From: Escherichia phage AV103
DNA: 39,735 bases
Strand: one strand, 5' to 3'
Sequence record: OR352934.1
The translations under genes were made by a program, and so were the position numbers. A model generated the notes under the pieces. The model made no database searches and was not told the DNA's origin. It was given only the letters and a program-made list of their open reading frames with translations. Shown here in pieces: positions 2,786 to 39,735 of this stretch (its first letter is position 1; every line of letters starts with the position of its first letter).

Positions 2786-3225
2786 GTGTCCTCCTTATAA
2801 GAGTCCTTCCGTGGACTACACGTCTTTCCTTGATATGATTATTCCAGACCCTTCAACTCAGCCATGAGTTTCAGTAAGTCCTGCTCAATGTCCTTCTTAG
2901 TTCGCTTTTTGGTTTCCTCTGGTGCGTGGAATTTCTTACCGTCCCATGTACACCCTCTCCAGTTACCAGAGAACTCGAAGGAATCAGTCACAATAATGGT
3001 TCCTCCTTCTACTGGTACGTACATACCAGACACAGGCCCGTCGGTAGCCCACATAACGTCGCCGTTAGGTCCAATTCCAACCACCCATGTTTCTTGGCGC
3101 TCATCTAGTTCTTCCATCAAGGTGTACCAATCAACGTTATTGTGGTCACGAATCTCATAGATTGGTTTTCCAAAATAAAACCCTTCGGTCCACTTCCAGT
3201 TAGTAAATACTCTCATTGTCCCTCC

Positions 3226-4887
3226 TTATTGTGACGCAATGATTCTTTTTGTGCCATTATGGAAACCAAGCCATACTGGTCTTAAAAAGATACCAGCAAC
3301 ACCCCCATTACTAACGGTTGTACCTGTTTGAACATGTCCAGATGGCGCTATAATGTCGTGATAACCTCCACCGTATCGGTTCCACACTTGAGGACCTAGA
3401 TAGACATCCCCTATGAAATATCTTCGTATCCAATCATCTAGGTATCCGGAATCATACGCAATACCCCAAACTCTACCATTAGGGTCAAAAGAGCCATTCC
3501 GTACAACCACACGTCCACCATCGGCCCAAATCTCCCCAGGGACGTGGAAGTCTCCATTGGTATTGAACGACCAAAGTTTATCACCTGCCCCTTCGTCTTT
3601 CATATGTATGTGGAATGACGGATGCGCTCCATTCAGCAATGTACCGATAGACCAGCATCCTGCCCACCGTCCAGATTGGTAAGTTCGTTGCTTTATTATT
3701 GGGTGATATGAGCTTGTAGATTGTACACGAATCTGTTGGAAGAAAGGAGCTTTAGTGTTGTACTGGTCAGCGAAAGCGTGAGCTATGCGATCATCAGCAT
3801 CTGACTCTAACACACCGCCAGCTATTGTTAACTGATTAAGTCTAATCTGGTGACGATGTTGCTCAGTCTTGTCCGCTGCATACTCTATGAACCCTATACC
3901 GTCCGGTCGGTCAATAGCGAGGTCAGACTTAAGGAAGTCGCCTTCTTCCCAAAGACCCATACGGAACCTAAATGCGTGGTTAGTTTGGAGTCCGTATACG
4001 GGACCCCCAACCCAATAGCCCCCTCCTCTCCAGAATACAGTATCACCCTGAACGCTATCTACAGCACCAGCAAAAGCATTCATGTTGCCAAGTTTGTCTG
4101 CTTCCTGCTTCGCTCGGTCTGCTTGCTGTTTTGAAGAAGCCGCAGAATCCGCTGAGGCCGTAGCTGAGTTCCCAGCGTTTACCTCAGATTGGCGTGCAGC
4201 GGTAGCGGAGTTACCAGCAGACGTAGCGTATTGACCAGCGGTGTTCTTGAACTGTTCAGCCTCATTACGGAACCCATAAGCCTCATCACGCCACTGCTTC
4301 GTGTTAGCAGCATTAGTGCCAGACTCGGTCTTAAAGCCATCCGCTTGATTTCTGAAAGTCTCAGCCTCATTACGGAACTGCAGGGCCTCGTTACGCGCCT
4401 GCCATGAGCTTTGGTTCATGGTCTTAAGTTGACCAAGCGGAACAGCGTCACGGTCATCAACGGCGTTCGCTAGGTTCACGATACGACGACCACGGGCATC
4501 CAAGTGACCATCATTGTTGACACCAATAGTATCCGCAGTTAAGTCACGGGCTTCTTCCGCTACATGCATAGTCTGAATCTGAGCCACGTTAAGGTCGTAA
4601 GCACGCAGGATTGAACCATCCGTAAAGTCAACAAGACGGTCAGTCGTGGAGGTTACTCGGCGTAGCTCAATAGTAGTGTAACCATCCGCAGGTCCCCAAG
4701 ATTTGGTTAGCGAGATAGTAGTGCGCGTAGCAAAGCGATAATCTGTATTAAGTGTGAGTACCTTACGGTCAACACCAATGAGAGTTACCACTACGAACTT
4801 ACGGGCTAGATATTCAAACGGGATGTTAAAATCACGATTTGAACCATCTAACGGGTAAGTCAAAACGGTCTTAATTACGTTAGCCAT
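3226..4887 (-). CDS. 17: Tail fibre protein, 553 aa
   Basis: 553-aa ORF MANVIKTVLTYPLDGSNRDFNIPFEYLARKFVVVTLIGVDRKVL...; length equals T7 gp17; preceded by a T7-type promoter. Confidence 0.95.
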   Translation of the reverse strand: MANVIKTVLTYPLDGSNRDFNIPFEYLARKFVVVTLIGVDRKVLTLNTDYRFATRTTISLTKSWGPADGYTTIELRRVTSTTDRLVDFTDGSILRAYDLNVAQIQTMHVAEEARDLTADTIGVNNDGHLDARGRRIVNLANAVDDRDAVPLGQLKTMNQSSWQARNEALQFRNEAETFRNQADGFKTESGTNAANTKQWRDEAYGFRNEAEQFKNTAGQYATSAGNSATAARQSEVNAGNSATASADSAASSKQQADRAKQEADKLGNMNAFAGAVDSVQGDTVFWRGGGYWVGGPVYGLQTNHAFRFRMGLWEEGDFLKSDLAIDRPDGIGFIEYAADKTEQHRHQIRLNQLTIAGGVLESDADDRIAHAFADQYNTKAPFFQQIRVQSTSSYHPIIKQRTYQSGRWAGCWSIGTLLNGAHPSFHIHMKDEGAGDKLWSFNTNGDFHVPGEIWADGGRVVVRNGSFDPNGRVWGIAYDSGYLDDWIRRYFIGDVYLGPQVWNRYGGGYHDIIAPSGHVQTGTTVSNGGVAGIFLRPVWLGFHNGTKRIIASQ

Positions 4888-11192: not shown

Positions 11193-11783
11193 TTACCTCC
11201 CCGTCTTGGTTCCTTTAGCGGCAACTATAGGTGCCTTAGTTGTGGACTTAGAGTCGAACGCACCGGATGCATAAGCACTCGCAGCGGAAGACCCCATGAT
11301 AGCCAGTGGGTCCAGAACCATCTGTAGCTTACTCTTCTGCTTCTGTTCGCCCTTATAGATTTCTCTAATCTGGCTTGCAGCACCTTGAGTACCGCCAAGT
11401 TGCTGTGCGAAGATTGCTTGGTAGTCACGACGATAGTTCTCAGTTACCATATTGGCTTCCCGAATGAACTGTCCATCTGTGACTCGCTTAATGCGGTCCA
11501 TTGAGGAACCTTCAAGCATACTCTCTCCGATAGCCGCTCGGATAGACCCCATAGCTTGGACCTTCTGCATGTTCTGAGCGGTCAACTCAGAGGACGCTTC
11601 CTCAAGTTTACTTCGAGCTTGTAGCGATAGGTCAGCATTCTGGATGTTCGTCTGCTTCATAAGTTCAAAGGCTTGACGACGACCAGCAGCGGTCTGAGCG
11701 GCAATCATTTTGGCCTGAGTGTGCTGACCACTGATAGCCTGAGCGCCAGCTATAGCGATAGGAATTGCGGCTGCCCAACACAT
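11193..11783 (-). CDS. 14: Internal virion (core) protein B, 196 aa
   Basis: Start taken at internal ATG (MCWAAAIPIAIAG...) preceded by AGGAGG; gives 196 aa as in T7 gp14; the longer 221-aa ORF overlaps gene 13. Confidence 0.85.
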   Translation of the reverse strand: MCWAAAIPIAIAGAQAISGQHTQAKMIAAQTAAGRRQAFELMKQTNIQNADLSLQARSKLEEASSELTAQNMQKVQAMGSIRAAIGESMLEGSSMDRIKRVTDGQFIREANMVTENYRRDYQAIFAQQLGGTQGAASQIREIYKGEQKQKSKLQMVLDPLAIMGSSAASAYASGAFDSKSTTKAPIVAAKGTKTGR

Positions 11784-12284: not shown

Positions 12285-14675
12285 TTAAATACCGGAACTT
12301 CTCCGTAAGTAGTTACCTTCCCAGCCACACCCAATGATGTTCAGCGGGGTAGTCTCGTCAGACAAGATGGACACGGTATTGAACTTGGCGTTACCAACCA
12401 CAGGGAATCGGTATTGTCCTGTCCCTAAGTTCAATCTCCCAGCCCTCAGAGCGTTAGAGCCTAAGCGGGCACCAGCCATTGTGTACTTCCAGTTGGACGA
12501 TTGGTTCTCAACATAAATGTCGAACGTACCAGACTCCTCATAGTTAACCCACGCTCGGCGTAACTGCAAGCGACCAATGTCTTCCGTTGAGGTTGACCCA
12601 TCGTCGGCAGTCTGCTTGATGAGGAACTTAGAGAACTCATAGACGAAGTTAATGTTGAACCCAATGTACACCGTTCGTCCCTCTAAGTTACCTCTGAGTC
12701 TCAGCCAAGGGTCACTATGCCACCCCGCAGCAGGCTGCTCAAACACTGTTATCTTACCATCAGGTTCTAGTACAGTGATTTTGCCTCTCCCGAAGTTAGC
12801 ACCATAAATGGTTGGAAGATGAATAGAGGTAGTGAATGAGTCATCGTTGTATGTTCCTCTAGGAATCGTGTAGCGAACCTTCATATCCATAAAGGCACGA
12901 TATGGTTCACCTTGTAAGTCAATGGCATTCTTAGTAAAAGCTATTTTAGCTAGGAACGTATTGAACTCATTGCGAAGAATCACATACATAGTTGAGTTGA
13001 TACTCTGACACGCCAGAACCTGTACGTTTTCCCCAAAGTCCCAATGAGACCACGACTGTTGTCTCAACTCTTCGTTCAGGTACAGGAATTTGTAGATGAA
13101 GATTTTACTTGGGTCCCCATGAGATAGTACAGAACAGAAGTTTTCCGTACCACTACCGCAGATACTGAACACACCGTTAGGGATATAGTTAGGAACGTGT
13201 GCTGTAATGTCCTCAGCGTTCTTAACGGAACTTACGTCCTGCACAGCGTAGTACCTGTGGATGGACGTGAAGCTGGACCTTGGACTAGCAAAGTAGACAT
13301 TACGCCCAATGCCATACGGTCTCGCTCGGTCCTGTACGTCAAACTGAGTCGTTAGGTTCAACTCAACCGACTTAGACGTGAGAGTGCCAGAAGCTGTCAG
13401 GACGAATTGTGCCTCATCGGACCAGATTAGTAACTCTTCTGAGAACGGGACGGCGTACTTAAGGATTGCTATCCTGTTTGTACTAACAGCTACGTCTATA
13501 GGGTCATCGTCACTTAGGTTAGCGACTGACGCTGGGAAGAAGTTAAAATATTTTGCAGTACGGCTCAATATAATGTTCTCTCCGCTAAGGAATCCTAAAC
13601 GGTTACGGAAGAAGAAGACATCGTTAATCGTAGAGCCTACGAATGAAGGATACGGGTTAGTATCAGCATCACCGCACACCCTAGGGTTCCATGAGATGGT
13701 CTTGAACTCAAAGTTGCCGTCAGAGGCCCTGACTAGAGCGTGAGGCATCGTATCGTGCGTGTAGTGCAGCTTGGTGTTCCACCCAACAACTTCCTTCCAT
13801 ACCTTACGACTGGTATCATACTGAACGTAATACTGGTCAGCGGACTTTGAGGAATCTCCCACAATCTTAACCATATAGCCGTCTGGGGCGTTTGGTGGTA
13901 ACTTAGAGAACGACTGAGCGTAGTGGGTGACAGGACTAATTAGCTGGTCTGCATAACCATCCTCTGTCGATATGTTCCACACCTCACCACTGGCAGGTGC
14001 TATCACATGGATGAAACCTTGACCAACATTGAATGTCCACCCGTAGGGTCCTAGGTTGTTCCTGAGTTGATTAGCCAACTCGTTAGCCAGCCATTGAGCA
14101 TCAGTATTGTTGACGTGTTCTGGAGCGGACCCGTTAGGGATTGTGTACGATGCATATACTGCACCATTAATCAGCACCTTCAACGTTCTTCCATACTGAC
14201 CGCCTCGCACGTTAATCAGTGCGTCACCTTTATCCCGAAAGTTACCACCAGTTGAAATTTCGGTGGACTCGGTTACTGTGACGTTTCTGTTAACGACAAA
14301 CGTGTAGTCGGCAACTGTCACCATCCGAAGGTCGTTCCTTGGGTTAGCTGTCTGTACATATGCTGCCCCTGTAGGGAAACGCACTTGTTTCTCGTTACCA
14401 GCAAGGTCAAACACACGGATGGTACTTCCGGTAAACACTGCGTAGTACCGCTCATACTCGTCACGGTTTATCAAGTGAATTAAAGGCGCTTGTCCTAAGT
14501 CTCCACTTCCTCCGAGTGTCTTAAGGAAAACCAGAGGTGGACGCTTTTGGAGGCCCTCGGTCTCCGAAGACCAACCGTTAACTTGGCGTGACCCTTGGTC
14601 TGGATAACGAAGGATGTCAGGCTGTTGGCTGATACCACCCTTCAAGTTCTTGATTGATTGGCTAATGAGTGCCAT
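12285..14675 (-). CDS. 12: Tail tubular protein B, 796 aa
   Basis: 796-aa ORF MALISQSIKNLKGGISQQPD...; size and position match T7 gp12. Confidence 0.95.
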   Translation of the reverse strand: MALISQSIKNLKGGISQQPDILRYPDQGSRQVNGWSSETEGLQKRPPLVFLKTLGGSGDLGQAPLIHLINRDEYERYYAVFTGSTIRVFDLAGNEKQVRFPTGAAYVQTANPRNDLRMVTVADYTFVVNRNVTVTESTEISTGGNFRDKGDALINVRGGQYGRTLKVLINGAVYASYTIPNGSAPEHVNNTDAQWLANELANQLRNNLGPYGWTFNVGQGFIHVIAPASGEVWNISTEDGYADQLISPVTHYAQSFSKLPPNAPDGYMVKIVGDSSKSADQYYVQYDTSRKVWKEVVGWNTKLHYTHDTMPHALVRASDGNFEFKTISWNPRVCGDADTNPYPSFVGSTINDVFFFRNRLGFLSGENIILSRTAKYFNFFPASVANLSDDDPIDVAVSTNRIAILKYAVPFSEELLIWSDEAQFVLTASGTLTSKSVELNLTTQFDVQDRARPYGIGRNVYFASPRSSFTSIHRYYAVQDVSSVKNAEDITAHVPNYIPNGVFSICGSGTENFCSVLSHGDPSKIFIYKFLYLNEELRQQSWSHWDFGENVQVLACQSINSTMYVILRNEFNTFLAKIAFTKNAIDLQGEPYRAFMDMKVRYTIPRGTYNDDSFTTSIHLPTIYGANFGRGKITVLEPDGKITVFEQPAAGWHSDPWLRLRGNLEGRTVYIGFNINFVYEFSKFLIKQTADDGSTSTEDIGRLQLRRAWVNYEESGTFDIYVENQSSNWKYTMAGARLGSNALRAGRLNLGTGQYRFPVVGNAKFNTVSILSDETTPLNIIGCGWEGNYLRRSSGI

Positions 14676-14695
14676 TAGAGCCTCCTTATTGATGA

Positions 14696-15286
14696 TTAGC
14701 GAGTCAGTAGACCAGAAGTGAACGCATCGCCATCCAGCATATTGTACCCACCGTAGTCCACTTCGTACTCCATACAGAGACGTCTAGCTTCATCTTCCTC
14801 TTCTTGAAGTACACCCTCTACCTCTGGTGCCCCAAAGAATCGGTTGTTGAACTGACGGGAAGCCTTGGTTACTATCCAGTAGCGGAAGCACTCAGGCATC
14901 TCATCGTAGTCTCGAAGACGTATAATGTTCACAGTAATGCCAGAGTCAAAGCGGTCTGTTTGATTCGTTCGGTCATACACATAGCCACCTCGGTTGACGT
15001 AGATGGATTGACCGGAAGTAGACATTAAGGATAAATAGTCATCGCTGTATACAATCAGGTTGGAGTAAACATCAGGTAAGAGCGTTACACCTTCCTCAAT
15101 GTTGAACGTCCAGCCACGAGACTGAATCTGTCGGTTAATCTTATTGAGAATACGTCGAGCGTTCGCCACGTCTGCGTTAGCATCACCTTCCAGCGTCGAT
15201 ACCGGAGGTTCCCCGATAGATGCCAGAATGTCGTTCACAGCGGATAACTCAGCGGCAGTCTCAACGTTCATATCGTAAGAGCGCAT
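14696..15286 (-). CDS. 11: Tail tubular protein A, 196 aa
   Basis: 196-aa [32 protein letters not shown]...; SD GAAAGGAGGAACTAT-ATG just downstream of the terminator. Confidence 0.95.
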
Positions 15287-15304
15287 ATAGTTCCTCCTCC
15301 TTTC

Positions 15305-15350
15305 AGCAAAAAACCCCTCAAGACCCGTTTAGAGGCCCCAAGGGGTTATG
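15305..15350 (-). terminator. T7 late terminator Tphi
   Basis: Reverse complement CTAGCATAACCCCTTGGGGCCTCTAAACGGGTCTTGAGGGGTTTTTTG: GC-rich hairpin plus U-tract between capsid gene and gene 11. Confidence 0.95.
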
Positions 15351-15354
15351 CTAG

Positions 15355-16544
15355 TTATTGCTCAGCGGTGGCGGCAGCCAACTCAGCTTCCTTTCGGGCT
15401 TTGTTAGCAGCGCGGGTGCGTGCGGCCTTCTGTGCTGGCGTTAAGGTTTCTTCTGTTGAAGTAACACTCTCCTCTTCGGGACTAGCAGCGACCGTTGAGG
15501 CCACTCCCAGCATTACTTCCCCTTGAAAACCACTGCACCAGCAGCTTCTGGGCGCAGACCACCGTGGCCCATTGCATACTTAGCAATAATCTGGTCTGCT
15601 TGGAAGTTAGCACGGCGAGCGCGCTCCAGAGCCAAGTCACGCAGTTTAACAGTACCTACCGCAGAGCGGTGCATGAACAGGCCGATAACGTTGTCCTTAG
15701 CAACCTTGTCGTTACCACTCTTAGTGGCAGGGAAGGCGTGCTTCTGACCAGTAGTATCATCACGAGAGGTGCCAGCACCACCAGCGGTGAGGTGAGGAAC
15801 TTCTACAACCTCAAAGCCCATAACGTTGCGGATAGAACCCTTCTCAGGGTCAATCAGAGCAGCGTAGTTTGCTGCGTTCGGCATAAGTGCTGCCAGAATC
15901 GCAGAGTAGCTATCTGGGTCGCAGTAGAACACACGGTCAGCAGCCGGAACATAGTTCTTAGTCAGAGCCGCACGAGCCTTGGTCAGAGCCGCAATAATCT
16001 CCTTACCCAGCGCAACTTGGTCGGTAAGTGCCGCCTTGTCCTGAGTGGTCTCAATTACGGTAGCAGTGCCCAGACCTGCAATGTTCTCATCAGAGGCGCT
16101 CGCCAAGTTACACAGGCCAGCAATCTCAGCCAGAACCGCACCATCAGCAGCCATAGCCAGAGATTCACCCAACTGAGAGGTATACTCAGAGCGAACGTCA
16201 TAGTGGTTCATCGCGTCCTCAATATCGTAAATCAGAACGTCAGCCGTCAGTAGGCCATCAATGGTGATGGTCTTCTCGGTGTGTTTGATGTCTTTACGTT
16301 TATCATCGAGGTTCTCACCAGGAGACAAGTAAGCTGCCTGAGTGCGACCCAGTACAGGGAACTGAGCGGATTTACCGCTGGAGATGGAACGGACCATGTG
16401 GCGAGAAGTGGTCACAGAGGTACGAGCGAATGCAGTCAGAACTTCACCACCAAATACCTTCAAGAACAACGCCAGTTTATCAGAAGCGCTTGCACCTTTA
16501 CCTTGGTTAGTACCCAGTTGCTGTCCACCAGTCATAGTAGTCAT
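15355..16544 (-). CDS. 10B: Minor capsid protein 10B, made by -1 frameshift near the 3' end of 10A
   Basis: Sense strand has GGTTTTC close to the 10A stop; the -1 frame stays open for about 53 codons (...TLTPAQKAARTRAANKARKEAELAAATAEQ*), stopping at 15355-15357 just before Tphi. Confidence 0.6.
15513..16544 (-). CDS. 10A: Major capsid protein 10A, 343 aa
   Basis: 343-aa ORF MTTMTGGQQLGTNQGKG...; preceded by phi10 leader and SD AAGGAGA. Confidence 0.95.
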   Translation of the reverse strand: MTTMTGGQQLGTNQGKGASASDKLALFLKVFGGEVLTAFARTSVTTSRHMVRSISSGKSAQFPVLGRTQAAYLSPGENLDDKRKDIKHTEKTITIDGLLTADVLIYDIEDAMNHYDVRSEYTSQLGESLAMAADGAVLAEIAGLCNLASASDENIAGLGTATVIETTQDKAALTDQVALGKEIIAALTKARAALTKNYVPAADRVFYCDPDSYSAILAALMPNAANYAALIDPEKGSIRNVMGFEVVEVPHLTAGGAGTSRDDTTGQKHAFPATKSGNDKVAKDNVIGLFMHRSAVGTVKLRDLALERARRANFQADQIIAKYAMGHGGLRPEAAGAVVFKGK

Positions 16545-16602
16545 ATGTATGTCTCCTTCTTAAAGTTAAACAAGAATGATTTCTAGAGGGAAACCGTTGT
16601 GG

Positions 16603-16625
16603 TCTCCCTATAGTGAGTCGTATTA
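16603..16625 (-). promoter_or_regulatory. T7 RNAP promoter (phi10) with GGGAGACCACAACGGTTTCCC leader hairpin
   Basis: Reverse complement TAATACGACTCACTATAGGGAGACCACAACGGTTTCCCTCTAGAAAT...AAGGAGA...ATG. Confidence 0.95.
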
Positions 16626-16638
16626 ATTTAAGAGTCTA

Positions 16639-17562
16639 TCAGAAGTTCGAGTCGATTACTTTCTGTTCGACTTGACGACGATAATTGGCATCTGTGCGAT
16701 ACCGAGGGTCGCTCATAGCTTTAATCATCTCGCTACGGTCCGCAAAGCCTTCACGCTTGGTCGCCTGAGGTTTAGCCGGAATAGCACGATTAGTCACGCT
16801 ACGAGTTGGCTTACGACCGAACGCCTTAGCGCGAGACTCACCAGCCAAGTTGATGATAGCCTTAACGGTCGCTAAGTCACGATTGGTCAACGCATTGTCC
16901 AGTGACTGTGCAGCCTCAGGGTTGTGCGTCTCAAGGTGATTGTACAGTGCGTCAAAACGCTCACGACCGCCAGCGTACTCAATGACACTGTTTACGTACC
17001 GCTCCACCAGAGCCTCTTGACCACGAATGTATGAGTCAATGAAAGCCTTCGTGTAGCCAATTTCAGCCAGCTTAGCGTAGGACTCAGCGGACAACTCTTC
17101 GTTCTCCTCGTACTCACGCTGGATGGCCTCTATGGTCTCAACACTCATGCCACGCTCGGCAGCAATGTTAATCATCTCTTGGAAGCCCTCTTCGTGCTCG
17201 CCAAGTTGCTCAGAGGCGGCTACCAGTTCTTCTGGAGTCTCACCCAGCGGGGTAAACTCCTCGGAACCTTCGGTGTCATCAGCGCCTTCTTCACCAGTGT
17301 CCACATCGGTCGGCTCAGAGCCATCCCCAATGCGAACCTGAATGCGGCCTTCGTCATCCTCTTGACCGAATGGGTCAGAGTTGTCGTACAGGTCACGTTC
17401 TGTTTCCACTTCGTCGGACGCTAACTCGATTGCATCATCGCCATCACGGGCAGCAACATCAAGAGCCAGCATGTTCTGCTCATGTTCCTCAACGGAACCA
17501 CCAGACATCACAGCGGAGTTCACGCCAAAAGATGCATATACGTCTGCATTAGATTCAGCCAT
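16639..17562 (-). CDS. 9: Capsid assembly (scaffolding) protein, 307 aa
   Basis: 307-aa highly acidic ORF between portal and capsid genes; same length as T7 gp9. Confidence 0.95.
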   Translation of the reverse strand: MAESNADVYASFGVNSAVMSGGSVEEHEQNMLALDVAARDGDDAIELASDEVETERDLYDNSDPFGQEDDEGRIQVRIGDGSEPTDVDTGEEGADDTEGSEEFTPLGETPEELVAASEQLGEHEEGFQEMINIAAERGMSVETIEAIQREYEENEELSAESYAKLAEIGYTKAFIDSYIRGQEALVERYVNSVIEYAGGRERFDALYNHLETHNPEAAQSLDNALTNRDLATVKAIINLAGESRAKAFGRKPTRSVTNRAIPAKPQATKREGFADRSEMIKAMSDPRYRTDANYRRQVEQKVIDSNF

Positions 17563-19607: not shown

Positions 19608-20009
19608 TTATACCTCCTTAAAGTATACACGCATTGTCTCGCCTTCATGTTTACAGCGGGACACCCAATCGCAATCGTGGAGTTCTGCAAGGTACTTAAA
19701 GCGTTTCGCGAGGAATCGCTGTAAGCCCTTAGAGTCTGCCTCAGGATTAATAACAACTGACGTAACGTCCAGAATGTCTCCCTTGTGGTGAATGTCACAG
19801 CTTACGCACCACGCGAAGTACGCTACATGTTTTCCGGTAGAGTCCAGAATGTACTCTTCACGGCAACCAGACATGTCCATAACTTCGTCAACGTAGAGGC
19901 TGTAGCCCACAAAGTGTCCTTCGAATCCCTTAGGCAACCCAAGGTGTTCCACAGTCCACCGAATTGCACGGAAGCGACTCTTGGCCTCCACACATGTGAA
20001 CTCAGGCAT
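19608..20009 (-). CDS. 7: Gene 7 host-range protein, 133 aa
   Basis: 133-aa ORF between 6.7 and 7.3; same length as T7 gp7. Confidence 0.85.
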   Translation of the reverse strand: MPEFTCVEAKSRFRAIRWTVEHLGLPKGFEGHFVGYSLYVDEVMDMSGCREEYILDSTGKHVAYFAWCVSCDIHHKGDILDVTSVVINPEADSKGLQRFLAKRFKYLAELHDCDWVSRCKHEGETMRVYFKEV

Positions 20010-20275
20010 TACTTCTTACCTCCGAATGCGGACTTACGGATTGAAGATTTCATACGAGCTGAACCAGTACCACTGGCTTTAGACTTCGCTACGGAATCAT
20101 CGCGTTCGACCTTGAGGTCTTTGCGTCCAGACACTTCGGTGCCTTCGGTATCCGTCTCATCAGAAGACCCACCGAACTCTACGCTTGACACTTCTTTGGT
20201 CAGAGGCGCTGGCTCAACGGCTCGAATCTGATTGGTATCCATCTTCGGAACTTTAACTTTCGGTGAGAAACACAT
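20009..20275 (-). CDS. 6.7: Gene 6.7 virion protein, 88 aa
   Basis: Start at internal ATG (MCFSPKVKVPKMDTNQIRAVEPAPL...) with SD GGGAGGA; 88 aa as T7 gp6.7. Confidence 0.8.
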   Translation of the reverse strand: MCFSPKVKVPKMDTNQIRAVEPAPLTKEVSSVEFGGSSDETDTEGTEVSGRKDLKVERDDSVAKSKASGTGSARMKSSIRKSAFGGKK

Positions 20276-22288: not shown

Positions 22289-22307
22289 AATAATTTCTCC
22301 TATAGTA

Positions 22308-22463
22308 TCAGTGACATACGGCCCAGTTAGGACCCATCTTACCTTCGGTATCCAGAAGACACCGGAAGTTCCAGTGGTCTCCAACCCAGCGCATTGCTTC
22401 TTGTGCGGTCTCAATGACCACCTTAGCAATCTCTTCGGTACGGCAACCCACTTGAATCTCATC
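22308..22463 (-). CDS. 5: DNA polymerase exon 2 (C-terminal 51 aa)
   Basis: Frame translates DEIQVGCRTEEIAKVVIETAQEAMRWVGDHWNFRCLLDTEGKMGPNWAVCH*, the conserved polymerase C-terminus; continues exon 1 after the intron. Confidence 0.85.
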   Translation of the reverse strand, partial: DEIQVGCRTEEIAKVVIETAQEAMRWVGDHWNFRCLLDTEGKMGPNWAVCH

Positions 22464-23063
22464 CTTTCTGTATTCTCCTATTACTAGGAGTGTCGGACTA
22501 TATCATCAGCCTTTGAGTTGACTGTCTGGCGCTTCGGGTAACGAGGGAATCTCACCCTCGGCCCTACTCCTTTCGGATAGTCTCTACGCCTTCCACTCTC
22601 TAATCCACTTACAAGCGGCAGAGAACGTTACACCAAACTTCTCACCTAAGTGTGTCCCTGTACATCCAGTCTCAAACCAGTATTCCTTCGCGGACTCTTT
22701 ACGGTCAGCGTAGCGTTCCATGTTTGTCTTGACTGTATGCTCAGAACCTTCTAGTAACTGGAGGTGCTCTACGTTACAGCACGCCCTGTTCCTACACTTG
22801 TGGTCTACTTCATACCCTTCTGGTATATCCCCGTAGTGTTCCTTCCAGACTGTCCTGTGATACATTTCTAGTACACCGTTCGTCTTCTTTCGGAAATAAC
22901 CATCAGCATTAAGTTTGTGTGACGTAGGGATGATACAACCACTCTCTGTGGTCGCAAGGATTAACTTCTTGCCTCTCATATATCCTCCCTATGGCTTGGC
23001 TCGGTATTGCCCAGAAGGGTTTCACCGAGTTCACCAGATTTAATGTGCACAATGAGATAGTTT
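22464..23063 (-). mobile_element. Intervening sequence in the DNA polymerase gene, probable group I intron carrying an HNH endonuclease ORF (600 bp)
   Basis: Polymerase frame stops 7 codons after ...FAYMAWVH and resumes 600 nt downstream; exon 1 ends in U, intron ends in G; internal ORF has its own SD; about 200 nt of non-coding flank. Confidence 0.8.
22584..22979 (-). CDS. Intron-encoded HNH homing endonuclease, 131 aa
   Basis: HNH motif EVDHKCRNRACCNVEHLQL; SD GGGAGGATAT-ATG; lies wholly inside the interruption of gene 5. Confidence 0.85.
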   Translation of the reverse strand: MRGKKLILATTESGCIIPTSHKLNADGYFRKKTNGVLEMYHRTVWKEHYGDIPEGYEVDHKCRNRACCNVEHLQLLEGSEHTVKTNMERYADRKESAKEYWFETGCTGTHLGEKFGVTFSAACKWIREWKA

Positions 23064-25022
23064 ATGCACCCATGCCATGTACGCAAAGTCCCCATCCCAG
23101 CCATGCTTCAAGCCTTTCTCTACGAGCATCTCTTCGGTCTTGATAATCCACAGTTTGCAGATGAGAGCACCCGCAGATTGCAGTAGTGTATTCAAGGCAG
23201 CGTGAGGACTACGAACGTGTACCTTACGACCATCCAGACCTTTAATCCAGCGGCGTTTCCACTTGACTTGTTGCTCACCAGCTACCCATTGAGAGGACTC
23301 GACAAGTGTCTGTTGGATAGACTCACGGAGTGCTGCAATCGCTGGTGTGTTCTCAAGGAATTTCTTCTTGAGTTCCTTACCGCGTTCTTTACCAGCACCT
23401 ACAATCTGTCCAATCTTCTCATCACCAGCGCCATAAAGGAACCCATAGATGAACGTCTTGGCGTTATCACGGGTAGGCAGTTCGGCAGCTAGTTGGTTCT
23501 TAGTGTGGATGTCACCATGAAGAATCTCTCTAGCGTACTCACCGTTATCAAAGCGAGCCATGAAGTGGGCCAAACAGCGCAACTCAAGGCCGGATGCGTC
23601 GATACCTGCCTGAACCCAAGGCTTACCAGTTATCCCATCCAAATGGTGCTCAGCGCCAAAAGCAGCGCGACACTGCTCTCCATAAGGAGAACGTACACCC
23701 GGAATTTGTGCAAGGTTGGGGAACGCATGGGTCGCACGACCCGTAACTGCTCCATTAGGGTTAACAGAACCATGAATCTTACCATCCTCAGCAACGTAAC
23801 GAAGCCATGCCTTGTCTCCCTCAGCGGACTGTCCGATTCGCTTCTGAATCATCAAGTACTCTTTAATGAGGTCGATAGCGGCTTGCTTCTCAGGGTCATC
23901 TACACGCACTCCTTCGAGTACCTCATCGTCCACCACAGGAGCACCATTATCGGTGTACTTGGTCGGGACCCATCCAGCCTCTTGGAGTTTCTTCTGAATG
24001 TGGTCACGAGACGAAGGGTTAAACACAACGTGCTCAACTGGAGTATAAGGAGCACCAGCAACATACTCGCGGGTGTCCAGTTCGCAAGGCTCACGGCCTT
24101 CTCGCTGTGCCTTGTTCTTAGGCTTCTTAAAGATACCACCTACTTTAGGTATCTTAATGCGAGGGTATTTAGGCAGTGGCTTACCTGTCCGTGGATGGCA
24201 GAACATTTCGGTGCCACCTTTAGGCTGATACCACGAGCCGAACGTTTCGGTCAATTTACGGAGCAACTCAGAGCGTCTAGCAGCTAACTCTACGTACAAC
24301 TCTTCGATTGCTTTCGTGTCAAACGGGAACCCATTGCGCTCTTGCTTAGCGAGTAGCCATGCAGCACGATGCTCAATGTCAACGGCCTCAAGGGATTCTG
24401 ACCAGAACGTAGTGTATCCTACGTCCGTAAAGTCAATCTCAGGAGGGAAGTAATGTTTGTCAGAGAGTAGCTTCTCAAGGAGAGTTTTAGTGACCACAAC
24501 GTCCTGAACGTTATAGGCCATCATCTCTTCGTTGAAGTTCCACCACTCCATCCCGTCAACGTATTCTTCACCCTGCTCTTCAAGCATACGCTTAAAGTCG
24601 TCCTTGTATTCACCTTTCATCTCGCCTAAGCGATAGCCCCACGCCTCCAGAGCGTGAGACCCAAAGCGTTTCCCAGGCAACTTACCGGAACGCAGAAGAC
24701 CCATATCGGTGTCCTTGAGGTTAGAGTGAATCAAGCGTGACAGCACAAGTGTGTCAATACAGTTCTCACGAGGAATGTGGAACTCTCGGTTCAACTGCAA
24801 CTTAGCCAGCTTGGTTAACGCAGGGATGTCAAATTTAGTGAAGTTATGTCCTACGATGAGTCCTCCCTTTGCTACCTCAGCTTCTAATGCGTCAAGGTAT
24901 TTATTAAAGTCCACAGGGCGATACTTGTTGTATTCTCCAGTACTGTAGTCATAGATAACCGCGCAATGGAATTTAGTAGTGGTCTCAAGTAGACCGTTTG
25001 ATTCGATGTCTGAGACAATCAT
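23064..25022 (-). CDS. 5: DNA polymerase exon 1 (N-terminal 653 aa)
   Basis: [27 protein letters not shown]... 3'-5' exo and pol motifs; exon 1 + exon 2 = 704 aa, the T7 gp5 length. Confidence 0.9.
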
Positions 25023-25459
25023 TAGAGTTCTCCTTTAAGATACCTTATGGCATTCTCCAACCTATCTGTAGAATCGAAGAATTTACCTAAACCAATATTG
25101 CAGTGCCAGCATAATAGCCCACGAACTTTCAGAGTTAAATGGTCGTGGTCAATACAGGCTACCTTATGTCTCTCGGATGAGTGTGCCATTATAGCGTCTC
25201 CACATATCTTACACCTCCCTCCTTGCGAGTTCCATAATTCCTCATACTGCTCTACTGTCAGGCCATACTTCTTGATTTGAGATTTACGAGAACTCCACCT
25301 ATGGGCCTCTCGCTTCTCAGCATCATGCTTATGGTATCTCGCATTGTTATCTTTACGGACGCACTCTTTACACCAAGTTCTAAGACCGTCCTTCATGCGG
25401 GAAGCCTTACCGAACTCGGAGAGCGGCTTTCCGTTCCCACATTTAGAACAAATCTTCAT
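25022..25459 (-). CDS. HNH / endonuclease VII-family protein with N-terminal CxxC zinc finger, 145 aa (putative free-standing homing endonuclease)
   Basis: MKICSKCGNGKP...WCKEC... then CKICG...CIDHDHLTLKVRGLLCWHCNIGLG, resembling T4 endonuclease VII; SD GGAGGTGG; stop overlaps polymerase ATG. Confidence 0.75.
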   Translation of the reverse strand: MKICSKCGNGKPLSEFGKASRMKDGLRTWCKECVRKDNNARYHKHDAEKREAHRWSSRKSQIKKYGLTVEQYEELWNSQGGRCKICGDAIMAHSSERHKVACIDHDHLTLKVRGLLCWHCNIGLGKFFDSTDRLENAIRYLKGEL

Positions 25460-25462
25460 GCC

Positions 25463-25485
25463 ACCTCCTATAGTGAGTCGAATAG
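25463..25485 (-). promoter_or_regulatory. T7 RNAP promoter (phi4.7-like)
   Basis: Reverse complement CTATTCGACTCACTATAGGAGG directly upstream of the 145-aa HNH ORF. Confidence 0.7.
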
Positions 25486-25488
25486 TAT

Positions 25489-25525
25489 TCATGAAGGCCA
25501 CCACTTGGGCGACCTTGAGGATACC
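25489..25525 (-). promoter_or_regulatory. RNase III hairpin (R4.7-like)
   Basis: AAGGCCACCACTTGGGCGACCTTGAG inverted repeat between gene 4.5 and the phi4.7-like promoter. Confidence 0.45.
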
Positions 25526-25529
25526 ACTC

Positions 25530-25799
25530 TTAGCTTTCAATCTTGTCGAGGATAGCCATAGCTTCATTGATGCGACCAGCCTCATGAATTGCTGTCACGG
25601 CAGCTTTGGTAAGCGCATTGACCAGACGCAGTGCTTGCTCATCTGTCAACGTCATACGCTGAGTGTGATTCTTAGAGGACTTAGAGTCCTTCCATCGGTA
25701 AACCATAGTCGCCTTACCGTTGCGAACGTTGATGTGGACTCGACGGTTCCACTGGTCAGCGGTATCGGATAGACGGATAGTTTCAGCTACGTTTGACAT
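25530..25799 (-). CDS. 4.5: Gene 4.5 protein, 89 aa
   Basis: Internal ATG with SD GGAGAAACCATT gives MSNVAETIRLSDTADQWNRRVHINV..., 89 aa. Confidence 0.8.
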   Translation of the reverse strand: MSNVAETIRLSDTADQWNRRVHINVRNGKATMVYRWKDSKSSKNHTQRMTLTDEQALRLVNALTKAAVTAIHEAGRINEAMAILDKIES

Positions 25800-35628: not shown

Positions 35629-35639
35629 TTAGTGCCTCT

Positions 35640-35700
35640 TCCGGTTAGTAAATCGTATCTATTCAGGCCACCCTCAGTCAGATGACCTGTAAGATAAGAC
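35640..35700 (-). promoter_or_regulatory. Possible RNase III site (R1-like) in the 0.7 to gene 1 spacer
   Basis: Imperfect inverted repeat CAGGTCATCTGACTGAGGGTGGCCTG; weak. Confidence 0.3.
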
Positions 35701-35702
35701 TA

Positions 35703-36782
35703 TCAGCCCATTAATCTTGCGTCAAGTTGCTTGTCGATGTTGAGCGGAAGACCGTTAGCGATAGCCGTGCGGTCAGCTTGGACCCAGTGCGCCGCTACTC
35801 GTTCCTCAAGCGCCTTAAAGTCCTTAGCGAGCATGTTGACCCAGAGCATAGCGTTATCGGTCCTTCCTAGTACATCTACAGCTCTCTCATGGTTACGTCG
35901 TTCTTGACGTTCAGCCATTCGCCACGCAGCAACCATTCGCTTGTGCTTCGCTTGGTGTGCTTTACGTGCCTTACGGTTATGGCGCTTTACTTTGCGTGCC
36001 TCCAATCGACCCACATGACGTGCTTTTCGTTCCTTAGCGCGGTCGATTTCTTTCTGTCGTGCGACTTCCTCGACTTCCTTGATGAGTTCCTCTGGGTCAA
36101 TACTGAATGCGCCACCGTCTTTCTTCTGCGAGAATGACACGGGGTCGGTAATGAATGGTGTATCATCGTCGCTGAACATGATGTTCCCGCTGTGCATGTC
36201 GAACGAAGCGATGCCCTCAAAGAACTTGCGGATTAGCTTGCAAGTTTCGACGAACTCGCCATCCCATCCAGTCAACCCATCATGCTCATCTGATTTGTAG
36301 TCAATGATGTCACTTGCAATCTCAGCGTATTTATAATGCTCATCGTTATCGTAACGGTCGCAATCGTTCAGTGCATCAAGTACCACCGTATAGCATCCAG
36401 CGTGACGCTGTACATCGTAGACGTTAGGGATACCAGCGCGACCTTGATACATGCGGCAGAATGCGGTATACGCAGCGCCTGAGTCCTCTTTCTTAAAGCC
36501 CACCTTAATCACCCTGTTAGGCAGCAGCGGGTGGCTATAAGCAGCCGAGAAGTGACCATTACCGAGCATCTTAAACCCCGCGTCAGTCGTGAGACACTTC
36601 AAGGTAGTCCACCAGTCTTGAAACTCAAGTGCCTGATTCAGTTCGGTTAGCTCTCCATCGCGTGTTTCGCTGTTGACCATCTCGACCAGTAAGTCGATAA
36701 GCATCCCTTGACGCTTGTCAAGTTCACAGATTGGAAGTGCTTTGATTGCGTCGATAGCGTTCATGATGTCGATAGCGTTCAC
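35703..36782 (-). CDS. 0.7: Serine/threonine protein kinase / host shut-off protein, about 359 aa
   Basis: Kinase-like N-terminal half and basic C-terminal half; start inferred at GTG 36782 with SD GGAG; alternative ATG at 36764. Confidence 0.85.
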
Positions 36783-37269: not shown

Positions 37270-37647
37270 TTATAAATCCTCCTCCCCCTCTTCGCAGTCT
37301 CCCTCTTCCTCTTCCTCTGCGACTTCCTCAAGGTACTCGTTCAGCAAGTCCTCAGCAACTTCCCAGAGGTCAATCGTGAGTTGCTCATAGATGCGAGCTT
37401 GCAGGATGCGAATTGTGTCCGTGGTGTCTGGCATCAGACCGGCATCCTCGAACGCACGATAGATACCGTCGCTTGCCATTACGCTAAAGACCTCAGAGTA
37501 GTGACGCGGAACTACACTATCGGCAGCCTCATGAACAGCATACGATAGATAATCAGGGTCACGGATAGCATCATGATGGATGATTTCTTTCAGTATTGCA
37601 TAAGCGCGGTCGAAAACGTTGCTGTAAGTCATGTTAGACATAGCCAT
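37270..37647 (-). CDS. 0.3: Ocr, DNA-mimic inhibitor of type I restriction-modification, 125 aa
   Basis: [16 protein letters not shown]...[40 protein letters not shown] plus polyacidic tail. Confidence 0.9.
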
Positions 37648-37679: not shown

Positions 37680-37726
37680 CTAATCATAAAGGCCACGCAT
37701 CGTGCATGACCTTGAGTTTAACACTT
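37680..37726 (-). promoter_or_regulatory. RNase III hairpin upstream of ocr
   Basis: ATCATAAAGGCCACGCATCGTGCATGACCTTGAG; near-duplicate of the hairpin upstream of the SAMase gene. Confidence 0.55.
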
Positions 37727-38183
37727 ATTGCACTTGCCAGCGGCGACCGAACTCATCAATCGTGAAGCAGCCTTGCAGCGGTGCGCCTTTAGGCACTTCT
37801 TGGAAACTACCTTGCAGACGTTCGGCCTTATACCCATCGATACCTTTAGCGTACACCAGACCAGCCGTGTGAGTCTGTGATTTGTATACCAGTACGCAGT
37901 CTTGCTCCCACTCATTGCAAGCTAAGCGAGCGACCTGTAAGACCTGTTCTTTGTCCTTGCAGCGTACACGAACCGTCTTTTCCTCAGTCGGTGCACTTGC
38001 GATTGCCTCACGATAGCATCCGGTCAAATCGGTTGACTCAACGGAGCCATAAAGACCCGGTGCGGCACGTAAGGTGCTAACCATGTGGCGGTGTCTGCTC
38101 ATATTCACCTCATCGTCGAGGTTGGAACGGAAAGCTGACACCAGTACATAGAAGACGTTAGCAGGCTCTTTAGTGAAAATCAT
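37725..38183 (-). CDS. S-adenosyl-L-methionine hydrolase/lyase (T3-type SAMase), 152 aa
   Basis: 152-aa ORF MIFTKEPANVFYVLVSAFRSNLDDEVNMSRHRHMVSTLRAAPGLYGS... as I recall for the T3 SAMase; SD GAGGT. Confidence 0.8.
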   Translation of the reverse strand: MIFTKEPANVFYVLVSAFRSNLDDEVNMSRHRHMVSTLRAAPGLYGSVESTDLTGCYREAIASAPTEEKTVRVRCKDKEQVLQVARLACNEWEQDCVLVYKSQTHTAGLVYAKGIDGYKAERLQGSFQEVPKGAPLQGCFTIDEFGRRWQVQ

Positions 38184-38214
38184 TTGGTGTTACCTCATGT
38201 TGGTTCGTTAAGTG

Positions 38215-38262
38215 AATATCATAAAGGCCACGCTTTAAGTGCGACCTTGAGTTATTCGCTTA
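38215..38262 (-). promoter_or_regulatory. RNase III hairpin (R0.3-like) upstream of the first early gene
   Basis: ATCATAAAGGCCACGCTTTAAGTGCGACCTTGAG. Confidence 0.55.
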
Positions 38263-38369
38263 TACGGCACACTCAAGAGCTATTTACCAGATTGTTAAAG
38301 AGCGTCTTTGGTCAGGTTTCGTTAGACCGCATCACCTTTCAGTGTGGTGACTCACTGTTCCGTCATTTC

Positions 38370-38405
38370 GTGGTACATCGTACCGTGTTTACTTCATGTT
38401 GTCAA
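38370..38405 (-). promoter_or_regulatory. Host sigma70 early promoter A3
   Basis: Sense strand TTGACA (38400-38405 rc) - 17 bp - TACGAT (38377-38382 rc). Confidence 0.85.
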
Positions 38406-38479
38406 CCGTTTTGTTTCACCTTATGTGCCGTGGTGCGCTTAAGTCACCTAGAAGACACCGTGCATCCGGTTGACGCTAC

Positions 38480-38516
38480 GTTGTGTATCTTACTGCATGT
38501 TACTTCATGTTGTCAA
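38480..38516 (-). promoter_or_regulatory. Host sigma70 early promoter A2
   Basis: Sense strand AAACAGGCATTGACAACATGAAGTAACATGCAGTAAGAT: TTGACA - 18 bp - TAAGAT. Confidence 0.85.
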
Positions 38517-38609
38517 TGCCTGTTTTTCGTATGACTTATCAGGCTGTCTACTTATCCGGTTGACCCCGGTATCTCAGGGAGTGGCTTTAAGGCCGTTGTC
38601 CCGTTGACG

Positions 38610-38644
38610 AGATGAATAGTAACCCTTAAGACTCTTTAAGTCAA
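38610..38644 (-). promoter_or_regulatory. Host sigma70 early promoter A1
   Basis: Sense strand AAAAAGAGTATTGACTTAAAGAGTCTTAAGGGTTACTAT: TTGACT - 17 bp - TACTAT. Confidence 0.8.
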
Positions 38645-38694
38645 TACTCTTTTTTTAAATTCTTTAATTTCTCTTTTAAGGTATCTTTAAGTAG

Positions 38695-38717
38695 TCTCCT
38701 TATAGTGAGTCGTATTA
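38695..38717 (-). promoter_or_regulatory. T7 RNAP promoter (phiOL, left-end replication promoter)
   Basis: Reverse complement TAATACGACTCACTATAAGGAGAC between the repeat array and A1. Confidence 0.8.
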
Positions 38718-38930
38718 AAGACGATGGATGAAGATTATCTCTTTATAGGTAACAACAAGGCGTCTATAGGATAGGCTTTAGGATGGTCTTTAGGCTGGTC
38801 TTTAGAAGATACTTTAAGATGGGGATTGACTCATGGTGTCTTTAGGTGTAGTCTTTAGGTTGTAGACGGTAGGAATGACTTTAGGAGGTGACTTTAGGAG
38901 GATACTTTAGGAGGCTGTAACAGATAGGGA
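38718..38930. repeat. Left-end array of degenerate CCTAAAG-type heptamer repeats
   Basis: Plus strand shows about 10 copies of CTTTAGG / CTTTAAG / CTTTAGA at irregular 10-25 bp spacing. Confidence 0.75.
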
Positions 38931-39090
38931 CACAGAGAGACACTCAAGGTAACACTCAAAGGTAAACCATCGGGTCATCCCAACCTTAAGTAACCCTCAA
39001 GGTCAACCTTCGGTTGACTTTAGGTGATTGGCTGGGCTTTAGGGACCCCCCCCCCCCTATGGGGGAACTTTGGGTCCGTACACTGTGAGA
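38931..39090. repeat. Direct terminal repeat (single collapsed copy); physical genome end at about 39090
   Basis: Reverse complement begins TCTCACAGTGTACGGACCCAAAGTTCCCCCATAGGGG...CCTAAAGCCCAGCCAATCACCTAAAGTCAACC, matching the T7 left terminus; 160-bp extent assumed by analogy. Confidence 0.6.
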
Positions 39091-39270
39091 TAGTCACTCA
39101 GATTTTTATGGTATATTTTAAAGGACCCTCTAGGAACTCCCTAGGACCTCTCTAAGACCCTCTTTAGGTGACACTGATAGGATGGCCTATCTTTAGGTAT
39201 AGACCTTAGGATAGACCATTAGAGGCTCTTTATGGGTATACCTTAGGACTTGACTCTATAGGGATGAAGT
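39091..39270. repeat. Right-end array of CCTAAAG / CCTAGG-type short repeats
   Basis: CTTTAGG, CCTTAGG and CCTAGG motifs recur between gene 19.5 and the terminal repeat junction. Confidence 0.6.
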
Positions 39271-39329
39271 GGTGTGATGCAATCATACCGCTGAATCCCT
39301 CGGTGAGCCATCAGTCGGTCAGGAAGACC

Positions 39330-39479
39330 CTAATCGCTACAAGTGAGTATAGAGCAAACGGTAGACTCCAGTGAACCGAGGTCTCCAGTAAGCGATGCGT
39401 ACCCAAGGGCAGCACAAAGTACCATAAGAAAGCGGTAGGTGACTCTATGCCGCAATAGGTTCAACAATAAGCGGAACAT
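39330..39479 (-). CDS. 19.5: Gene 19.5 small protein, 49 aa
   Basis: SD GGGAGGAGACTA-ATG; MFRLLLNLLRHRVTYRFLMVLCAALGYASLTGDLGSLESTVCSILTCSD. Confidence 0.7.
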   Translation of the reverse strand: MFRLLLNLLRHRVTYRFLMVLCAALGYASLTGDLGSLESTVCSILTCSD

Positions 39480-39633
39480 TAGTCTCCTCCCTTTATGTTG
39501 GTCTTTAAGTTAAGGTGATATTAATACAATATAATCACCATTCTTAGAGGTCACTTTAGGTACACTACTATGCATACTTTATGCACTCTATAAGTATTCA
39601 TTCAGTATCTATATAGTAACCTTTCGTCCCTCC

Positions 39634-39656
39634 TCTCCCTATAGTGAGTCGTATTG
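39634..39656 (-). promoter_or_regulatory. T7 RNAP promoter (phiOR, right-end promoter)
   Basis: Reverse complement CAATACGACTCACTATAGGGAGAGGA between gene 19 and gene 19.5. Confidence 0.85.
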
Positions 39657-39735
39657 ATTTCTCTTTATATTCAATAACTTAAAAATCGACCTTCCGTGGT
39701 CTCTAATGAATCCCTATGCAATCCTAGTGCATAAA

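Follow-up and report, generated by a model that had tools for sequence, protein, structure and literature searches.

Escherichia phage AV103 (sequence record OR352934.1) has a T7-like DNA polymerase gene, gene 5, whose reading frame breaks off before the conserved C-terminus and resumes 600 nucleotides (nt) further along. What is this insert, and how could a complete polymerase be made across it? An initial annotation of the whole 39,735-nt stretch (hereafter the window), made from the letters without database searches, proposed that the insert is a probable self-splicing group I intron carrying a gene for an HNH protein. We find that the insert in this essential gene of a T7-like phage (Teseptimavirus) is very probably a mobile intron of group I, subgroup IA2, which shares a lineage with those of phages PhiI, W31, 13a and K1F. 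Gene 5, the insert and the other features marked (-) below lie on the minus strand of the window, and their coordinates are given in descending order, from 5' to 3'.

Gene 5 exons and the boundaries of the insert

The open reading frame (ORF) at 25022..23040(-) is 660 amino acids (aa) long. It contains 653 polymerase codons ending in ...FAYMAWVH at position 23064, followed by seven unrelated codons (KLSHCAH) and a stop, and the coordinates given for it in the initial annotation are correct. The minus-strand frame beginning at 22463 encodes DEIQVGCRTEEIAK...NWAVCH and then a stop. Joining exon 1 (25022..23064, 1959 nt; codons 1–653, ending ...GUGCAU with His653) to exon 2 (22463..22308, 156 nt; codons 654–704 plus the stop, starting GAU GAG for Asp654-Glu655 of polymerase motif C) restores a frame of 704 aa with a single terminal stop. 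The spliced polymerase aligns to T7 gp5 with no gaps and 677 of 704 residues identical (96.2%), which bears out the observation that the two exons add up to exactly the length of T7 gp5.

The boundaries of the insert were placed by blastn alignment to T7. Window positions 25034..23064 correspond to T7 14340-16311, with 92% nucleotide identity in exon 1, and 22463..22305 correspond to T7 16312-16470. Since T7 bases 16311 and 16312 are adjacent, the insert is exactly 23063..22464(-), 600 nt, running from AAACUAUC... to ...CAGAAAG with its terminal G at 22464. The insertion point is between His653 and Asp654 (VH|DE, in motif C), and the junction is fixed, with no room for sliding, because the bases differ across each boundary: exon 1 ends in T, the intron runs from A to G, and exon 2 starts with G. 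The predicted ligated junction is ...GGGUGCAU|GAUGAGAUU (GUGCAU|GAUGAG, positions 23064/22463), and the corresponding insertion site in the intron-less gene 5 of T7 is ...GGGTACAT|GATGAAATCC....

Asp654, which we take from the structure of T7 polymerase to be one of its two metal-binding catalytic aspartates, lies beyond the insert, and an unspliced product would therefore be inactive. To judge from the reading frames, a polymerase made without splicing would lose the Asp-Glu of motif C and the C-terminal 51 residues. Several public records divide the polymerase into two coding sequences around the insert, for example those of ECBP2, VSG32 and pO111.

Ribozyme fold and splice-site pairings

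A search of the insert with the Rfam group I model (Intron_gpI, RF00028) matched the full model (positions 1–253) at 23073..22474(-), with an E-value of 2.5e-7 and a score of 36.1 bits against a gathering score of 50 bits. We drew the fold by hand along the Rfam alignment, with P7 entered as a pseudoknot against P3. The internal guide sequence is AUCUCAUUGUGCAC (23058..23045), assigned on its P1 and P10 pairings and their covariation. P1 forms between GUGCAU|AA, in which exon 1 ends and the intron contributes its first two bases, and UUGUGCAC (23052..23045), placing a U.G pair at the splice site. The 5' part of the guide, AUCUCAU (23058..23052), pairs in P10 with AUGAGAU, exon 2 bases +2 to +8 (22462..22456). 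P2 is absent.

The 5' half of the core (23044..22980), supported by the Rfam alignment, RNAfold and pair counts, holds the 5' strand of P3 (23038..23032), P4 (23029..23023 with 23006..23000), P5 (23019..23017 with 23012..23010) and the 5' strands of P6 (22999..22998) and P6a (22994..22991), followed by the GGAGG of the intron ORF. The 3' half (22583..22464), assigned on Rfam, RNAfold and covariation, contains the 5' strand of P7 (22582..22577), P7.1 (22576..22569), a GUA linker, P7.2 (22564..22536), the 3' strand of P3 (22531..22525), P8 (22524..22507), the 3' strand of P7 (22501..22496), P9 (22490..22475) and the terminal G. The paired strands are UCUGGUG/CGCCAGA in P3, CUCGGUG/UACCGAG in P4, CCC/GGG in P5, CC/GG in P6, CCAU/GUGG in P6a, CAGUC/GGCUG in P8 and CUCCUA/UAGGAG in P9, and the P4-P5 motif reads TCGGTGAA...AATACCGAGC. 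P7 (GACUAU/AUAGUC) is invariant and fits the consensus GACUA...UAGUC.

When the two halves were folded separately with RNAfold, P1, P4, P5, P7.1, P7.2, P8 and P9 were recovered, and the 3' half had a z-score of -2.8. The P7.1-P7.2 region is CCGAAAGG-A-GUA-GGGCCGAGGG...CCCUCGUUACCC, and both of its helices show compensatory changes as well as being found by RNAfold. Introns of subgroup IA2 are recognized by the presence of P7.1 and P7.2 between P7 and the 3' strand of P3, joined by G-U-A (PMC3428280); with both helices and the GUA linker, the AV103 intron falls in this subgroup.

Covariation among homologous introns

A distant blastn search with the intron returned 115 phage records; coverage of the intron reaches 80% or more in 55. 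An alignment of 15 sequences was built with 13 of these records (65–99% identity) and one contig from IMG/VR (L134), the ORF interiors being replaced by N6. Across this alignment the P1-P10 fold with the P3/P7 pseudoknot forms standard pairs in 98.0% of 934 cells, whereas sliding the 3' partners by one to three columns as a control leaves 34–46% paired, with at most seven pairs changed on both sides. Such both-sided, compensatory changes are seen in 26 of the 65 pairs of the fold (103 cells), and none of 500 column shuffles equalled any of the observed measures. They are present in P3 (five of its seven pairs), P5, P6, P7.1, P7.2, P8 and P9. P4 and P7 are essentially invariant, and covariation speaks neither for nor against them.

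The pairings with the exons behave in the same way. Every cell of P1 (100%) is paired, all 15 sequences have U.G at the 5' splice site, and in 4 of the 15 a G-C pair is replaced by A-U, exon 1 AUGCAU being matched by guide GUGCAU instead of GUGCAU by GUGCAC; this exon variant is found in the Gordonclarkvirinae phages and in Vp_R1. P10 is paired in 88.7% of cells and includes a C-G to U-A change in VSG32 that accompanies a synonymous GAG/GAA change in exon 2. The intron ends with G in 15 of 15. Between the introns of the window and of VSG32 there are 5 differences in the ribozyme core and 76 in the ORF. A core conserved far beyond the ORF, with compensatory changes in nearly every helix and in both exon pairings, is a pattern expected only if splicing is selected.

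The group I proposal of the initial annotation is thus supported by the full-model Rfam match, the covarying P1-P10 fold and the splice-site features. The covariance-model search that it had suggested gave a full-length match, albeit one scoring under the gathering cut-off; a P1-P9 fold, whose absence from the flanks would have spoken against an intron, is recovered there and conserved across homologues; and the terminal U of exon 1 and terminal G of the insert, cited as typical of group I splice sites, hold throughout the alignment.

The intron-encoded HNH protein

The intron ORF (22979..22584) lies in the loop of P6a and encodes a 131-aa protein of the HNH family of homing endonucleases, placed in the I-TslI/F-TslI group and assigned on its Pfam match and its homology to T3 gp5.3. 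It matches Pfam HNH_3 (PF13392) with an E-value of 6.7e-17 and 61.3 bits, against a cut-off of 24.8, and has 48% identity over 95 aa to T3 gp5.3 (E-value 4e-31) and 98.5% identity to the 13a protein annotated as 'endonuclease'. The ratio of nonsynonymous to synonymous substitution rates (dN/dS) relative to homologues is 0.07–0.19, and the protein is therefore under purifying selection. A sequence search against the PDB with E-values up to 1 gave no match, I-HmuI included.

GGAGG stands 4 nt 5' of the ORF's ATG, which together with the HNH_3 match agrees with the earlier description of an HNH ORF with its own Shine-Dalgarno site. The intron has 84 nt before the ORF and 120 nt after it. These lengths had been given correctly in the suggestion that the two flanks form the ribozyme core, although the core also takes in the end of the ORF: within its last codons (GAG UGG AAG GCG UAG), positions 22596..22589 also provide P6a and P6 with their 3' strands, and the joining segment J6/7 contains the UAG stop (22586..22584). 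The flanks of 84 and 120 nt thus slightly understate the core.

The gene 5 pre-mRNA presumably serves as the message for the ORF. A sequence resembling the 3' end of a T7 promoter, CCAUAGGGAGG, was considered as a promoter within the intron and rejected, as no T7-type promoter is found there at three or fewer mismatches; nine are found elsewhere in the genome. No terminators were found inside the intron, and sigma-70-like matches in it are at chance level.

Relationship to introns already described

The element is already known: it is the same as the intron of phage 13a and belongs to the lineage of PhiI, W31, 13a and K1F, as follows from its 98.7% identity to the annotated 13a intron and from its match to the PhiI and W31 introns in gene, site, subgroup, ORF location and ORF family. 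In 13a (EU734174) gene 5 is annotated as a two-piece join, with the same exon junction and an 'endonuclease'. The intron of the window differs from that of 13a at eight positions, seven in the ORF (two amino-acid changes) and one a 1-nt deletion in P5. Gene 5 is also annotated as a join around an intron with an endonuclease gene in Bas103/Bas104, JeanTinguely and K1F (DQ111067). The K1F intron is 80% identical to that of the window; its P7.2, P8 and P9 carry compensatory changes and its P10 is shorter. An intron in the K1F polymerase gene has been noted before (PMC4925675).

The account of the PhiI and W31 introns in PMC3428280 describes them as IA2 introns with an HNH ORF in P6a, at position 881 of DNA polymerase I (Pol I), and cites work by Bonocora and Shub from 2004 in which both self-splice, with guanosine initiation, in vivo and in vitro. 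As far as that account goes, the intron of the window resembles them in its host gene, in its site (Pol I 881, the His|Asp of motif C), in being IA2 with P7.1/P7.2 and GUA, in carrying an HNH ORF with its own ribosome-binding site in P6a, and in having no P2; nothing substantively different was found in this comparison by description. The statement in the initial annotation that introns at this position occur in a few other T7-like phages is in line with these join annotations of 13a, Bas103 and K1F and with site 881 of PhiI and W31. A literature search on phage 13a and its intron gave nothing useful.

More distant parallels are I-HmuI of SPO1, I-HmuII of SP82, I-BasI of Bastille and I-PfoP3I of Pf-WMP3, where, as here, a family A polymerase gene has an IA2 intron with an HNH nicking or homing endonuclease (PMC3428280). 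The introns of these four phages are at Pol I position 674, whereas that of the window is at 881 (PMC3428280).

Distribution and movement between phages

The intron has a patchy distribution. A 1-kb query across the junction matches 464 phage records, of which 33 cover at least 80% of the query including the intron, and within the T7-like phages the lineage is found in Teseptimavirus, Teetrevirus, Berlinvirus and Kayfunavirus. In the Kayfunavirus-type phages PDP351P3 and BUCT788 the intron is 92–100% identical to that of the window (in 100-nt bins) and the flanking gene 5 exons are 50–68% identical, the identity shifting sharply at both intron ends. This difference is the signature of recent horizontal transfer.

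An intron with an HNH ORF also occurs at the same His|Asp junction in the family A polymerase genes of distant phages, with 65–72% nucleotide identity in whole-intron matches. These include ECBP2, PAS59 and PE006, with genomes of about 77 kb (ECBP2 and PAS59 belong to the Gordonclarkvirinae, as does SU7, a further carrier of about 77 kb; PE006 is similar and unclassified), Vibrio phage Vp_R1 (112 kb, Grimontviridae), Klebsiella phage RCIP0053, Edwardsiella phage DT115P1 and Aeromonas phage PT2 (Studiervirinae). In most of the distant-phage records the intron-split polymerase is entered as a pair of genes. An additional hairpin (ACGUCGAGUAAUUGACGU), absent from the window, takes the place of P2 in RCIP0053 and DT115P1.

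It is possible, and we put it forward tentatively, that a single lineage of intron plus HNH gene has spread recently among phage genera and into distant families, always at the His|Asp junction of motif C, with its guide re-tuned to the local exons by compensatory changes. If this is true and its breadth has not been catalogued, it would show cleanly, in nature, how an intron can follow a universally conserved target from one virus family to another.

We also scanned IMG/VR with the P4-P5 motif, TCGGTGAA(N6-30)AATACCGAGC, which is not specific to this intron and was found in at least 120 viral contigs (L016 to L135), ranging from 4-kb fragments to about 400 kb, the size of jumbo phages. Among the matches listed, the polymerase site is occupied in just two, L129 and L134, and L134 alone joined the alignment. 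Nearly all of the matches listed have a different upstream (5' exon and P1) sequence, so these copies of the motif are presumably in other genes. Judging from the motif, the core sequence of P4-P6 is evidently almost the same in phage group I introns that sit in many different genes.

Proposed mechanism and alternative explanations

By analogy with the published work on PhiI, W31 and T3, the AV103 intron would be expected to self-splice, and its endonuclease to have the cleavage specificity and homing activity of its relatives. Gene 5 would be transcribed as one pre-mRNA. In it, P1 would form between the internal guide sequence and the final six bases of exon 1, placing the U.G wobble at the splice site. 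Free guanosine would be bound by the core, P3 to P9 with its P3/P7 pseudoknot, and would attack the 5' splice site; P10 would align exon 2, and the 3'-OH of exon 1 would attack after the terminal G, joining His653 to Asp654 to give the 704-aa polymerase. Translation of the 131-aa HNH endonuclease would start on the gene 5 transcript at a Shine-Dalgarno site of its own. In mixed infections this enzyme would cut gene 5 alleles that lack the intron, close to the insertion point, and the intron would be copied in as the break is repaired from an intron-bearing genome (homing).

Some observations weigh against this interpretation. The 3' strand of P5 is GGG (23012..23010) in the window and GGGG in 13a, Bas103, VSG32 and PC192, giving an intron of 600 nt as compared to 601 nt in all close relatives, and the missing G removes the closing U.G pair of P5. 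It is the sole difference from 13a and Bas103 in the 5' half of the core. The shortened run may be a homopolymer sequencing error; as a real change it is probably tolerable. The Rfam score of the insert falls below the gathering score of the family, likely because the P6a insert of about 430 nt is counted as an insertion. Identity with the PhiI and W31 introns (AY769989/AY769990), described as above, is indirect, resting on the same site, the same architecture and a link through 13a and K1F. Splicing and endonuclease activity are, moreover, predicted for this phage from its sequence.

One could accept that the intron splices and propose that its HNH protein has lost its homing activity, which would make the intron an inherited passenger. 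Fixation of an intron in a population is commonly followed by decay of its homing-endonuclease gene, and two residues of the ORF (R87M and L102F) are substituted in comparison with all of the close relatives compared. However, the ORF is intact, with its strong HNH_3 match and low dN/dS, and the recent transfer seen in the near-identity of introns between genera with divergent exons also argues against decay, so that we consider this proposal unlikely. A more drastic one is that the insert is a splicing-dead remnant or simply a disruption of the gene, leaving a polymerase that is truncated at 660 aa or is assembled from two polypeptides as a 'fractured' gene. The many GenBank records with two polymerase coding sequences (ECBP2, VSG32 and pO111 among them) would be read in this way, and the P5 deletion in the window would fit. 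Yet exon 2 has neither a start codon of its own nor a Shine-Dalgarno site at the junction, the catalytic Asp654-Glu655 would be cut off from the rest of the active site, and the ribozyme core is more conserved than the ORF, with compensatory changes that include both exon pairings. We regard a loss of splicing as very improbable.

Least probable of all, to the point of being negligible, is that the interruption is an artefact of assembly or sequencing, or an intein, for which the interrupted frame itself is the only argument. An insert of 600 or 601 nt occurs at the same site in at least 55 independent phage records, and this recurrence, together with the exact insertion relative to T7 and the restoration of the exons, led us to reject a frameshift or assembly error. 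An intein was rejected because the stop seven codons past the junction and the stop at the end of the ORF preclude removal at the protein level, and because the insert matches an RNA family and has no Hint domain in Pfam. The mobile IA2 intron thus remains by far the best explanation of the locus.

Nuclease genes around gene 5 and elsewhere

In the window gene 5.5 (Pfam Phage_T7_55, E-value 3e-63) directly follows gene 5, and there is no gene 5.3. The initial annotation had noted this absence, and had described 5.3 as an HNH gene in both T3 and T7. The absence is correct, and T3 gp5.3 is indeed an HNH_3 protein, but T7 gp5.3 matches the PD-(D/E)XK family PF11645 and not HNH. T3 gp5.3 (F-TslI) resembles the protein of the intron ORF in its HNH_3 domain and in the identity over 95 aa described above. 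It differs in being encoded by a free-standing gene just downstream of an intron-less gene 5, and it lacks a C-terminal extension of about 35 aa that the AV103 protein has. Bonocora and Shub reportedly found in 2009 that T3 gp5.3 and the intron enzyme share one cleavage position in the polymerase gene. In the model of collaborative homing, a free-standing endonuclease and an intron with the same conserved target site later unite (PMC3984707). With its HNH gene in the intron and no gene at the 5.3 position, the gene order of the window fits the 'united' state of this model.

T7 genes 2.8 ('endonuclease'), 3.8 (HNH), 5.3 (PD-(D/E)XK-like) and 7.7 (HNH), at T7 coordinates 9857-10276, 11225-11590, 16483-16839 and 19848-20240, are all missing from the window, with clean alignment on either side of each. 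The set of nucleases in the window, the intron HNH protein and an Endonuclease VII ORF, is thus entirely different from that of T7.

The Endonuclease VII ORF (25585..25022(-), 187 aa) ends exactly at the start of gene 5, and two different nuclease genes therefore flank or interrupt the polymerase gene. Its domain matches Pfam PF02945 with an E-value of 2e-20. Over its first 40 aa it matches T7 gp4.7 at the N-terminus, and the remainder replaces gene 4.7, 25464..25035 having no T7 counterpart. From its sequence and position, the ORF probably represents the insertion into gene 4.7 of a free-standing homing-endonuclease gene of the Endonuclease VII-motif (DHHRN) type, whose start is likely internal, at MKICSKCG. 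In 125 phage records at least 80% of the ORF is covered, the best match being 95.7% identical.

Other features of the genome

The window is a complete, circularly permuted T7-like (Teseptimavirus) genome in reverse orientation, collinear with T7 save for a few replaced segments. Over a 24-kb test stretch its identity is about 94–95% to Bas103 and JeanTinguely and 92.7% to 13a. The early region holds two anti-restriction proteins, a T3-type S-adenosylmethionine lyase (38183..37725(-); PF23780, E-value 2e-43) and a T7-type Ocr DNA mimic (37647..37270(-); PF08684, E-value 7.5e-45). A 1.2-kb segment at 2833..4055 has no nucleotide match to T7 and corresponds to T7 35455-36297, the 3' part of tail-fibre gene 17; this replacement is a host-range module swap of the kind usual in the T7-like group. 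Positions 38926..39735 and 38181..39090 map to T7 39131-39937 and 1-927, so that the junction of the right and left genome ends is crossed with the terminal repeat of about 165 nt in single copy, which suggests that the assembly collapsed the direct terminal repeats.

Implications

None of the findings on the intron constitutes new knowledge. The element is ordinary for the T7-like group, and the practical value of recognizing it lies mainly in the correct annotation of gene 5, which needs a two-exon join (25022..23064, 22463..22308) if the polymerase is not to be recorded as truncated or split into two genes. Selfish yet harmless elements residing in essential genes have a textbook example in this locus. 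It also illustrates a proposed route by which a free-standing endonuclease gene of the T3 5.3 type and an intron with the same target become one mobile unit. In engineering this phage, or crossing it with T7, the endonuclease should be expected to bias inheritance of the gene 5 region.

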